Shown here piece by piece: positions 1-3,000 of a DNA stretch of 21,150 nucleotides; position 1 is the stretch's first letter; each line of letters begins with the position of its first letter. Made by a program: the position numbers. The stretch is from a virus (taxonomy: Duplodnaviria > Heunggongvirae > Uroviricota > Caudoviricetes), in IMG/VR virus record IMGVR_UViG_2648501392_000022, positions 1 to 21,150 of that record; one strand, written 5' to 3'.

Positions 1-3000
1 ACCACCACGACAGCATGGTACCAGCAGGATCCCCGCGTTATTCGGGATATACGGAAGCAGTTTTTTGGCAATATGTAAGCCCTGGCCGACACAGCCGTAC
101 TGCCCTTTGCTCAGGTCTGCCTTCGGATGATTCAGCGTACTCATATCCTGCACATCATGCAGGCAGTGGTCGGCCGGAATAATATCGTTATATCTGCAGG
201 CAGCCCCACCCGGCGTCACTGTACTGCGGCGCGCCAGCTGTTTAATGCGCGGATCCGGAGCATCGTATGAATCCGGAAGCGGAAGCCCTTCACCGTAAGC
301 CATTGCATTGGACTGCCCGGCCAGTACGATGACGTAGTACCAATCCGGCTCAGTTGCACCACTGACCACCACATCACCTTCTGCTGCAATCGCCTGCATC
401 AGGGTATAAGGGGTTATGGCCACCGGACTACCAAACGGCTGCCAGCCCTCTTTCAGTTTGTGTGTCAGCTTTTCCGCAAGGTCTGACGGCGACGCCGCCC
501 TGACAACATCATAATGTTTAAATGTCATTATTCCTCCCGGCCGGGATAGTGTATTAAATCAGATATGGAGTGGGCTGTAGTCCGGAAGCCTGAATGACAC
601 ACGGGGACTACAGCCCAAGAAATGAAAAAAGGCCACGCAGTTGCGCAGCCTGATAAACCCTGGTTAAAATCCACACGATAACAACACAACAATATCAGTA
701 TCTCATGCTATTGCCCGAACCCATTCGGGCATTTTTTACCCATAAAAAATGCCCCTCCGGAGAGGGGCATGTTTGCATGCACATTCTTTTTCTTGCATGG
801 TGCCGGGTGCCTCCCGGTGAATTCAGTATCAGCACCTGAATCCGCGATTATCACATATACCTGGTTGCTGATTGCCCCTCCGCACAGGGGGATTCACCAT
901 GCAGTAGTATTTTTAATAAACAGTAAACAAAAAAATCAAGCATTATGCAGGCTGTTTCTTTTTATCACCGGCCACAGCAATACCACAATGCCGCAGACCA
1001 GCACCCCATCCGCCAGCACCGACATGATTCTGCTGGTGAAATCCACCATCACCACCAGAAACAGCAGGAGTGCAGCCACAGCCAGGCGCAGTTTTACCGT
1101 CACTGGTGATTCTCCAGACGAAGACCCAGAACACCGGCAATCTCTTCCAGAACCTTGCGCTCTTCCGGCTCAATTTCGCCGTCTGCCTCCGCAATAGCCA
1201 CCGCCACATCCAGCACATCTTCCGCTTCACGCGTATCGTGTTTCACATCTTCAATTTCACGCAATGTCGCTCGACGACCAATTTTAAAGTTCGTATCCAG
1301 CTGACCGATAATGGTTGCGCTAATCGCATTAATTTCTGACGTAAACGCGGACAGCGCTGGCTGATTACGCAGTACCTGTTCGATCTTCGCTTTCTAGGAA
1401 GCCTCACATTCACCATCTGCACAGGCCACCAGGTAGGCAGCATTAATAACCGCCTGTGCCAGATCGCGTTTCTCAAACTTTCCTTTTTCCGGTTAACGTG
1501 ACACACCAATAACTCTTGTCGAAAAAGCCAGCAAGCTGAAAGACCGGTATTCACCGCCGCCAGCGCGTTTACTGTACTGGACCGATTTCAGCCATAAAAA
1601 AACCCGCTCGCGGCGGGTTTAAGCTGTGTGGCGTAGTAACCACTCTTAACATACTGACATACTTTTTGCGGACCGCGCTAATCATTTTTTACTTTTTTGG
1701 GCAGCCAGTCGTCCATCTCCAGCCTTACACCCAGCATCGACAGACATCCGTCAATAAATCCTTCAGCAATCTGCATCTCAATTCGTATTGCCTTTTCGCT
1801 CTTCTTTCTTGTTCTGGCAATCTGCCTTTTTGATATGCGCAGCAGATAATGAGCTACCAGCAGCGAATACTCGTCCGGTTTTTTCTTCTTCAGGCGCGTA
1901 AGGCAGTTTTCGATGATAAGGCCGTCATCATCGCTGCAGGCCGGGCGAGGTTTAGCGGTGGATGGTAAAAGGCCTTTAAATCCAGCAGCTATCGGAGAAT
2001 AGTCCACCCCGGCGTTACCACTTGCCGCCCATGCCCCCCAGCGTTCGAGAACCATCTGAATATCACGCATTATTCGCACTCACCAACCAGATTGAGAATG
2101 ACCGCTGCACCGTCGTCTTCCATGCATTCACCCTTACCACTTGCCAGAAACCAGCGGCACACCTCCACGGCTTCAGCGCGTGTCACCGGTTTGATGGTTG
2201 CCAGCAATTTTTCAAGGTAGCGCTCCCGGTCATATACCGATTCGTGATGCTCAGAGTAACCAAACTCATCGCCCTGTTCTTTAGTTGCAGTGTGGCGAAC
2301 ACTGTAGAGCCAGTCCCAGTAAACGAACTCGCGAACAACATCAGACAGCGTATAAGGCTCAGGCAGCACATCGCGATATCCATCAACAAATGCCCGACGC
2401 TGTTCATCAATTTCGTTCATGCGGCTGCCGCCAATGCTTCCGGCTTTTTTCTCTGCCGCAGTCCAGCCCCAGAGATGATCGTTGATAAATTTCTGGGAAG
2501 ACCTGATGACCCGCTCTGCTTCCACATCTTCGAGCGCTGCTTCATAGCTACCAAACGTAGCCCTGACTGATGCCGCTTTTTTGATGTTCTCCCGGGCGTT
2601 CCTGATAACCTGCGCAGGGTTATCCATGCCGATGATGCCGAACGCAACCTGGAAAGGTTCGTAACCATTCGCCAGCAGATAACGCGAATAGCGTTCCTGA
2701 GCCTCTTTTGGGGAAATTTTAATTTTCACCAGCGCAGCCTCAGCAGCATCCAGATGTGCGGGTTCGTTCAGACGGATAACCTCCAGCACCCAAAGATAAG
2801 CATCAGTCTGCTTATGCCCGGTGATTCTCCGTTGCTCTGGCAGGGGCTTGATGTTTGCGAGGGCGGAGCTGTACGCTGCCGTCGGGATGGTGAATAGTGC
2901 TTTATGTTCGTTATTATCAGTACGCATTACGCAACCGCCTTTTTCTTATGGAAAACCAGCTCTCGAACCTGATCACCGTTCATGAGCATATTGTTGAAAT

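Follow-up and report, generated by a model that had tools for sequence, protein, structure and literature searches.

Two short membrane-protein genes in a lambdoid prophage of Escherichia coli: a TciB (DUF3927) family member and a conserved 27-codon gene

Single-pass small peptides such as MgrB, AcrZ, KdpF and MgtS have an architecture that serves the binding of larger membrane proteins, toxic peptides such as DinQ, TisB, Ldr and Hok are 19-50 amino acids (aa) long with one transmembrane (TM) segment, and holins typically possess a long charged C-terminal tail and a dual-start motif. In bacteriophage P1, three genes are arranged in the order tciA-tciB-tciC, in which TciA is a TerB homologue; the resemblance of P1 tciA to terB has been described previously (PMC9603915). 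A membrane association has been reported for TerB, and the Bunzi and Shango defence systems contain TerB domains (preprint 10.1101/2022.05.11.491447). Here, two short open reading frames (ORFs) are compared with these systems. Both reside in a 21,150-nucleotide (nt) stretch of a Caudoviricetes record (IMG/VR record IMGVR_UViG_2648501392_000022, positions 1 to 21,150; hereafter, the window), which is a lambdoid prophage of E. coli. ORF1 is a member of the TciB/DUF3927 family, which is named and uncharacterised, and ORF2 is a 27-codon gene for a predicted membrane peptide. An initial annotation had proposed that both might be holin- or toxin-like. The two ORFs and their immediate signals, including the Shine-Dalgarno (SD) sequences, are the following.

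12080-12163, plus strand: 27-aa membrane peptide gene MSWPDAIVTLGVVFAVAFVVFSICRWG, the ORF2 core, intact in 160/160 IMG/VR loci
12067-12073, plus strand: AGGAGGT SD sequence, 6 nt before the ATG at 12080, read from the sequence
12041-12079, plus strand: in-frame 13-codon extension giving a 40-aa form; the ATG at 12041 overlaps the stop of the beta-clamp-like gene; lineage-specific
936-1103, minus strand: tciB (ORF1), 55 aa, GTG start, TGA stop at 938-936; PF13064, PHROG 1470, WP_000216636.1 in the NCBI Prokaryotic Genome Annotation Pipeline (PGAP)
1111-1116, minus strand: SD-like TGGAGA (GGAG at 1115-1112), 8 nt 5' of the tciB GTG, read from the sequence
1100-1462, minus strand: tciA/TerB-family pseudogene, marked 'internal stop' by PGAP; in-frame TAG at 1396-1394; its stop overlaps the tciB start

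The window's ORFs of 20-60 aa were all screened with two requirements, a mean Kyte-Doolittle value of at least 2.2 over 17 residues and an SD match of at least 4 nt. Three ORFs passed, compared with an average of 0.09 in 100 random Markov-1 sequences. Two of these were ORF1 and ORF2, which lie where the initial annotation had placed them, with good SD sites and strongly hydrophobic products. The maximum 17-residue means were 2.62 for ORF1, in which two hydrophobic segments are split by DFTSR, and 2.83 for ORF2, which has a single segment. The third ORF that passed is embedded in a large ORF of the opposite strand; it encodes 23 aa (MSAFPPLLIFCVPPLILVPVAIP, 17648-17719, plus strand) behind a 4-nt SD inside the minus-strand ORF 17467-18993, and is probably spurious.

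The family assignment of ORF1 was straightforward. Pfam PF13064 was matched at 62.3 bits (cutoff 25; E = 4e-17) over residues 3-51, and PHROG 1470, designated 'TciB-like', over the full length (E = 4e-30), while PGAP applies the label 'DUF3927 family protein' in every RefSeq match listed. Homologues carrying the name TciB are found in P1, P7, SJ46, phage 434 and N4-like phages such as Pollock. P1 TciB (P1_gp075) resembles ORF1 in a full-length identity of 50%, in the VDFTS...L(A/S)DG motif, in a length of 54-55 aa and in its overlap behind a TerB-like tciA. The window differs from P1 in that tciA is a pseudogene, that no tciC-like third gene is present and that the locus occupies a lambdoid late-operon slot instead of the P1 tRNA/ban region. 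ORF1 has the size and shape of the family, namely 50-55 aa with two hydrophobic segments around a VDF(T/S)S...LADG core. Alignment of the P1, Pollock, 434 and E. coli members revealed that D21, F22, S24, L30, D32 and G33 are invariant, that the conserved residues concentrate in VDF(T/S)S(R/K)..S.LADG, and that basic residues are located at both termini (K4 and R6; K48 and R49).

Initial scans for both genes gave near-identical copies, and divergent IMG/VR loci of tciB and ORF2 were gathered with divergent lead queries. A profile search of genome contigs with a four-sequence TciB alignment yielded two loci; the diversity is hence drawn from IMG/VR. In this collection, tciB is intact in 80/80 divergent loci, mostly with a GTG start, and 78 of the 79 ORFs lying upstream of it match P1 TciA, with a 4-nt overlap in most cases. 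Thus, tciB is nearly always coupled to a TerB-like tciA in lambdoid, P1-like and N4-like phages. The median dN/dS (ratio of nonsynonymous to synonymous substitution) of tciB was 0.14 (pairwise Nei-Gojobori; 69 unique coding sequences, 1747 pairs), which points to purifying selection. A hidden Markov model (HMM) search of 1.84 billion representative proteins detected 114 DUF3927 representatives, almost all of which are stand-alone proteins of 50-65 aa; a few long matches look like frameshift or chimeric artefacts and were rejected as fusions.

The TerB-frame remnant is directly connected with ORF1, as its TGA stop overlaps the tciB GTG in the sequence GTGA (1103-1100), in agreement with the earlier description of a 55-aa protein following a TerB remnant. 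The first 17 codons of the window's tciA, including the start, are swapped for unrelated sequence containing an upstream in-frame TAA. At the position of the internal TAG, 51 of 78 close relatives carry GAA (Glu) and 27 carry the stop; therefore, the pseudogene allele circulates among prophages of enterohaemorrhagic (EHEC) and enteropathogenic E. coli and is not private to the window. Of 80 close relatives, 42 encode TciA at its full 143 aa, and tciB is intact in all of these. In the window, tciA is dead and tciB is an orphan. A comparable arrangement is seen in phage 434, where tciB follows an unrelated multi-pass membrane protein and no TerB gene is found. As a single gene, ORF1 adds little, since its family is already catalogued; the wider value of the survey lies in TciB being almost obligatorily coupled to TerB across temperate, plasmid-type and N4-like (Schitoviridae) phages.

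ORF2 ends with a TAA at 12161-12163 and can be read from two ATG codons, the upstream one (12041) being preceded by AGGAG at a distance of 8 nt. Comparison with the phages PhiR5_1, Stx2a_WGPS2 and 933W revealed that similarity begins at the SD of the second ATG, and in these three phages the ORF2 ATG overlaps the stop of a different upstream gene (ATGA). The same ATGA overlap with an upstream stop is present in 160/160 IMG/VR loci. The 13-codon extension occurs in only 15 of these, all of which have the beta-clamp-like neighbour as in the window; because the 27-aa form is found in all 160, the true start of ORF2 is placed at 12080. A peptide of 27-40 aa after a DnaN-like gene, as initially described, is therefore real, with the conserved form being the 27-aa one and the 40-aa form being confined to those 15 loci. 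Protein databases also contain ORF2 entries lengthened at the N-terminus in various ways, artefacts of start codons chosen further upstream.

The GGAGG-type SD is kept across at least five kinds of upstream gene end (DUF551/Ea22-like, L0139-like and others), and at least four downstream contexts occur in the 160 loci, including a DUF4222 gene, a hok/sok locus and terminator hairpins. Among 33 unique coding sequences, dN/dS was 0.19, and variable sites were distributed over the three codon positions as 7/9/21, third positions being variable at 21 of 26 sites. M1, W3, P4, A6, G11, A15, V19, V20, S22, I23, C24, R25 and W26 are invariant in the 160 loci, and rare substitutions in the C-terminal S-I-C-R-W are found in other homologues. 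Variants of 29-31 aa contain in-frame insertions of 2-4 residues in the TM segment (AM, AV or LV repeats), and one variant has a duplicated N-terminal half, suggesting that the helix length is evolutionarily flexible. The conservation in related prophages that had been named as a check on the initial annotation is thus seen for both genes, tciB being intact in every divergent locus and the 27-aa ORF2 in every locus of its own set. ORF2 gave no match in Pfam, NCBIfam, PHROG or PADLOC, and a TciC-like identity was rejected, as BLASTP against the 35-aa P1 TciC produced no alignment at E <= 100.

ORF2-related sequence was detected in 1005 of 5426 complete E. coli genomes (approximately 19%) at 1350 places, 150 of which are on plasmids, with up to four places per genome. 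Phages Av-05 (Vequintavirinae) and pPE4 and a P1-like plasmid carry intact copies as well. In the window's lineage, the form that PGAP annotates is the 40-aa one (WP_001467557.1 and WP_021501359.1). The 27-aa form lacks PGAP annotation in three RefSeq records (O157:H7 strain 1130, O104:H4 and pEC190329_2) and is missing from the GenBank records of 933W, PhiR5_1 and WGPS2. The expectation that such genes are usually missed by annotation consequently applies to the 27-aa form in these six records, and neither to ORF1 nor to the 40-aa form, which PGAP recognises. A full-text literature search with the ORF2 peptide strings returned no paper. Of the two genes, ORF2 is the more useful result, as a widespread, unnamed, SD-driven 27-codon gene skipped by automated annotation in clinically important Shiga toxin (Stx)/lambdoid prophages. 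Its carriers include the Stx-type prophages of O157:H7 and O104:H4, and its naming and start correction offer a concrete candidate to researchers on small proteins and Stx phages. Stx phages of the 933W type carry the 27-aa ORF after the DUF551/L0139 gene and approximately 170 nt upstream of hokW/sokW, so that two genes for small hydrophobic peptides are neighbours. The 933W equivalent occupies 1516-1599 of the compared stretch, and O157:H7 strain 1130 and pPE4 are listed with the same hok adjacency.

Taken together, the two ORFs are real accessory genes for very small membrane-type proteins and, with somewhat better than even confidence, TciB is the membrane partner of TciA and ORF2 a single-pass peptide that packs against another helix. 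The model of TciB as anchor or partner draws on the reported membrane association of TerB, on the phage TciA lacking a hydrophobic segment, on TciB being predicted as nearly all membrane helix and on the translational coupling of the two genes. TciB would hold the soluble TerB-domain TciA at the inner membrane, possibly as a hairpin whose two termini face the cytoplasm, a topology that fits the two hydrophobic segments, the basic ends and the VDF(T/S)S...LADG motif. The two proteins might then form an envelope-associated module that serves phage growth, not lysis or killing. The tciAB pair is probably active in the course of infection and not just in lysogens, given that N4-like (Schitoviridae) phages have it too. 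The orphan tciB of the window may act alone, as in phage 434, or may be heading to decay. In the ter operons (terZABCDEF), Bunzi and Shango, a TerB-domain protein at the inner membrane is combined with an integral membrane component, as is proposed here for tciAB. The phage pair is minimal in comparison, consisting of a 143-aa TerB protein and a 55-aa membrane protein without TerC, TerD, helicase or other effectors. TciB had no match in PADLOC, and the intact TciA had one weak sub-threshold match (PDC-S48, E = 0.0035).

ORF2 consists of a 17-residue hydrophobic core with the invariant G11xxxA15, flanked by W3-P4 and R25-W26. By the positive-inside rule, the short acidic N-terminal tail (MSWPDA) would be outside and the C-terminal CRWG inside, giving a putative Nout-Cin single pass. 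ORF2 shares a single helix, interfacial aromatic and basic residues and a small-xxx-small motif with MgrB-, AcrZ-, KdpF- and MgtS-type regulators and with small phage membrane proteins. It differs from the four regulators in having no sequence relationship to them and in being a phage-borne, ATGA-coupled, mobile cassette of SD and ORF. Translation would occur by re-initiation at the ATGA overlap with whichever early-left-operon gene lies upstream, and the SD and ORF may move between phages as a self-contained cassette. The genes of the exo-xis region are expressed on induction or infection and influence lysogenisation and induction (PMC4195576). ORF2 lies in this early-left region, and its expression is therefore expected after induction or infection; at that stage, the peptide most likely would pack against another membrane helix, either its own or that of a host inner-membrane protein.

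Several observations weigh against this interpretation or do not strengthen it. AlphaFold2 predicted TciB as one continuous helix over residues 3-53 (mean predicted local distance difference test score 88) and not as a hairpin, an outcome that speaks neither for nor against the hairpin topology. No genuine TerB-DUF3927 fusion was found among the 114 representatives, so that a contact between the two proteins has no Rosetta-stone support. Since both phage 434 and the window keep tciB without a working TciA, TciB can outlive its partner. The name 'Tci' (tellurite/colicin resistance, division inhibition) derives from the homology of the neighbouring gene alone, and tciA, tciB and tciC were each non-essential in a CRISPR interference screen of P1 (PMC10695390). 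Among close relatives, the variable sites in tciB by codon position number 4/2/2, a very low diversity without third-position bias. For ORF2, the peptide is not found in the supplements of ribosome profiling (RIBOseq) studies of EHEC, an absence that carries no information, as these studies used uninduced cultures and may leave sequences unlisted. No experimental literature was found on either TciB or the 27-aa peptide, and a profile search of the Protein Data Bank gave no match.

A bolder version of the ORF2 proposal, which we advance only tentatively, is that ORF2 represents an undescribed peptide family whose GxxxA face binds a host inner-membrane protein, leading to superinfection exclusion, growth arrest or altered induction or lysogeny; in parallel, the orphan TciB could act independently of TerB.

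Somewhat less probable is that ORF2, and possibly the orphan TciB, is a membrane-damaging or growth-arresting peptide of the Kil or type I toxin kind outside a type I toxin-antitoxin locus. The size and hydrophobicity of ORF2 resemble those of the toxic peptides, and its operon, the early-left one, is also that of lambdoid host-arrest genes such as kil. Its closeness to hokW/sokW in 933W-type phages (approximately 170 nt) points in the same direction, and its presence in the Vequintavirinae phage Av-05 makes a role in the infected cell plausible. However, no toxin family match was obtained for ORF2 in Pfam, NCBIfam or PADLOC; the type I toxin families (Hok/Gef, Ldr, Ibs, ShoB, TisB, DinQ and Zor) matched neither ORF at E <= 1 in these three collections, and PADLOC gave no defence-system match for either. 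Compared with these toxins, ORF2 lacks an HMM match, an antisense RNA recognised by Rfam and an independent mRNA with a long structured leader, and is instead coupled to a protein gene. At its gathering thresholds, Rfam returned only STnc100, located 3' of ORF1 on the same strand, and AgvB, approximately 200 nt away, with nothing near ORF2. The sole antisense promoter-like site near either ORF (1283-1312, in tciA) is approximately 180 nt from ORF1 and points away, and the count of such sites did not exceed that in shuffled sequences; for ORF2 itself, neither an overlapping antisense small RNA (sRNA) nor an antisense promoter was found, although undescribed antisense RNAs may exist at either ORF. 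Neither ORF forms a stand-alone toxin transcript, as ORF1 overlaps tciA through GTGA and ORF2 overlaps its upstream gene through ATGA in all 160 loci; a type I toxin is usually translated from a separate mRNA under tight repression, whereas ORF2 combines a strong SD with coupling to the gene before it. The presence of ORF2-related sequence in approximately 19% of complete E. coli genomes, at up to four places each, also disfavours toxicity.

It is rather improbable that ORF2 is a translated bridge that relays ribosomes to the DUF4222 gene, with a peptide devoid of function. Such a role would suit the upstream ATGA overlap, the spacing of just 4 nt between the ORF2 stop and the DUF4222 start, and the very short peptide. 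However, selection acts at the amino-acid level, as indicated by the dN/dS of 0.19 and the invariant M-x-W-P-[DE]-A, G11xxxA15 and S-I-C-R-W in the 160 loci; ORF2 is kept in front of hok loci, terminator hairpins and unrelated genes; and the insertions of 2-4 residues in the TM segment preserve both the frame and the hydrophobic character.

We consider it very unlikely that one or both ORFs are chance frames or dead remnants without a product. The element is decaying, with a tciA pseudogene beside ORF1 and frameshifted Q and beta-clamp genes, and some O121 strains carry a tciB shortened to 43 aa. However, both families are intact over hundreds of loci with coding-type substitution patterns, and only 0.09 such ORFs per window would be expected by chance. 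The particular tciB copy of the window may no longer be used.

Least tenable of all is a prophage holin, pinholin or antiholin role for ORF1, which is superficially class II holin-like in its two hydrophobic segments, its 55 aa and its late-operon position, yet belongs to DUF3927/TciB without matching any holin model, lacks the long charged C-terminal tail and the dual-start motif, is coupled to TerB and not to an endolysin (78/79 upstream ORFs in the 80 divergent loci), adjoins tRNA genes and ban in P1, where it is non-essential, and coexists in the E110019 prophage with a distinct class II holin beside YdfR and lysozyme, approximately 2.7 kb downstream beyond the esterase gene. No holin family was matched by ORF2 either in Pfam or PHROGs, and neither ORF is in a lysis cassette, ORF2 being in the early-left operon beside xis and int. 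The holin, Kil and type I toxin labels of the initial annotation are therefore not supported, given that neither ORF matches a model of these three kinds in Pfam, NCBIfam, PHROGs or PADLOC, that both lie outside the lysis cassette, that Rfam shows no overlapping antisense RNA and that both are coupled to upstream genes.

The surrounding prophage provides the context of both genes. Positions 600-1700 show 100% identity to the chromosomes of E. coli strains E110019 and Z1323HEC0393. The minus strand carries, in order, replication genes, Q, a terminator-like hairpin, the TerB-family pseudogene, ORF1, two sRNA genes and the start of a SASA/NanS-type esterase, and the order in E110019 is Q - TerB (pseudo) - DUF3927 - SASA esterase - class II holin - YdfR - lysozyme. 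The tciA'-tciB site is a late-operon cargo slot, bordered by Q with its terminator and by the esterase and lysis genes. The plus strand contains a LexA-family repressor gene followed by the early-left operon, which encodes a ParE-like protein, SPFH, ORF6N, the beta-clamp-like protein, ORF2, DUF4222, a 48-aa ORF, an excisionase-position ORF and the integrase.

1678-2079, minus strand: Q gene, flagged as frameshifted in E110019
1600-1620, minus strand: intrinsic-terminator-like hairpin 3' of Q, from a terminator scan
9006-9224, plus strand: ParE-family toxin-like gene, from the E110019/CAU16175 annotation
9859-10686, plus strand: SPFH-domain gene, from the E110019/CAU16175 annotation
10655-11479, plus strand: ORF6N-domain gene, from the E110019/CAU16175 annotation
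11476-12044, plus strand: beta-clamp-domain (DnaN-like) gene, frameshifted, as two overlapping ORFs, 11476-11835 (119 aa) and 11763-12044 (93 aa)
12168-12410, plus strand: DUF4222 gene (Pfam PF13973, E = 8e-14), beginning 4 nt past the ORF2 stop
12414-12560, plus strand: 48-aa ORF, 3' of the DUF4222 gene
12569-12778, plus strand: excisionase-position ORF, 'hypothetical protein' in E110019 and 'excisionase' in relatives
12733-13911, plus strand: integrase gene, 3' of the excisionase-position ORF

The beta-clamp-like gene is intact in strain CAU16175 (189 aa) and 'frameshifted' according to PGAP in E110019. As both this gene and Q are frameshifted, the prophage is probably defective. PHROG 285 and PHROG 3871 were matched in the stretch from DUF4222 to the integrase (12168-13911). 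In E110019, an IS3-family element (6078-7291 of its stretch) lies directly 3' of ORF2 and splits the DUF4222 gene; this element is missing from the window, which therefore derives from a strain or assembly that is close to E110019 but distinct from it.

Downstream of tciB, two sRNA genes converge.

738-928, minus strand: STnc100-family sRNA gene (Rfam RF02076, 144.7 bits, full length), beginning 8 nt past the tciB stop
770-749, minus strand: STnc100 terminator hairpin, from a terminator scan
676-737, plus strand: AgvB (anti-GcvB) sRNA gene (Rfam RF02702, 96.5 bits), convergent with STnc100

A 30-aa ORF on the minus strand (851-943) was rejected as a tciC analogue, being inside STnc100 with an unconserved product. 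Among 21 alignable relatives, diversity drops approximately ten-fold over 932-1231, which covers the 3' third of tciA and all of tciB; nucleotide diversity (pi) is approximately 0.003-0.012 in this block, compared with 0.03-0.07 towards the 5' end of tciA and a maximum of 0.13 within STnc100. The block looks like the outcome of mosaic recombination plus ascertainment bias, and no overlapping element is deduced from the low synonymous diversity of tciB. The low tciB diversity possibly fits a recently spread mosaic block or a constraint at the DNA level, for example from an STnc100 promoter in its 3' end. STnc100 may have its own promoter within tciB or may be processed from the tciAB transcript. 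A CATAAT sequence at 947-942, inside the 3' end of tciB, is a candidate -10 box for STnc100.

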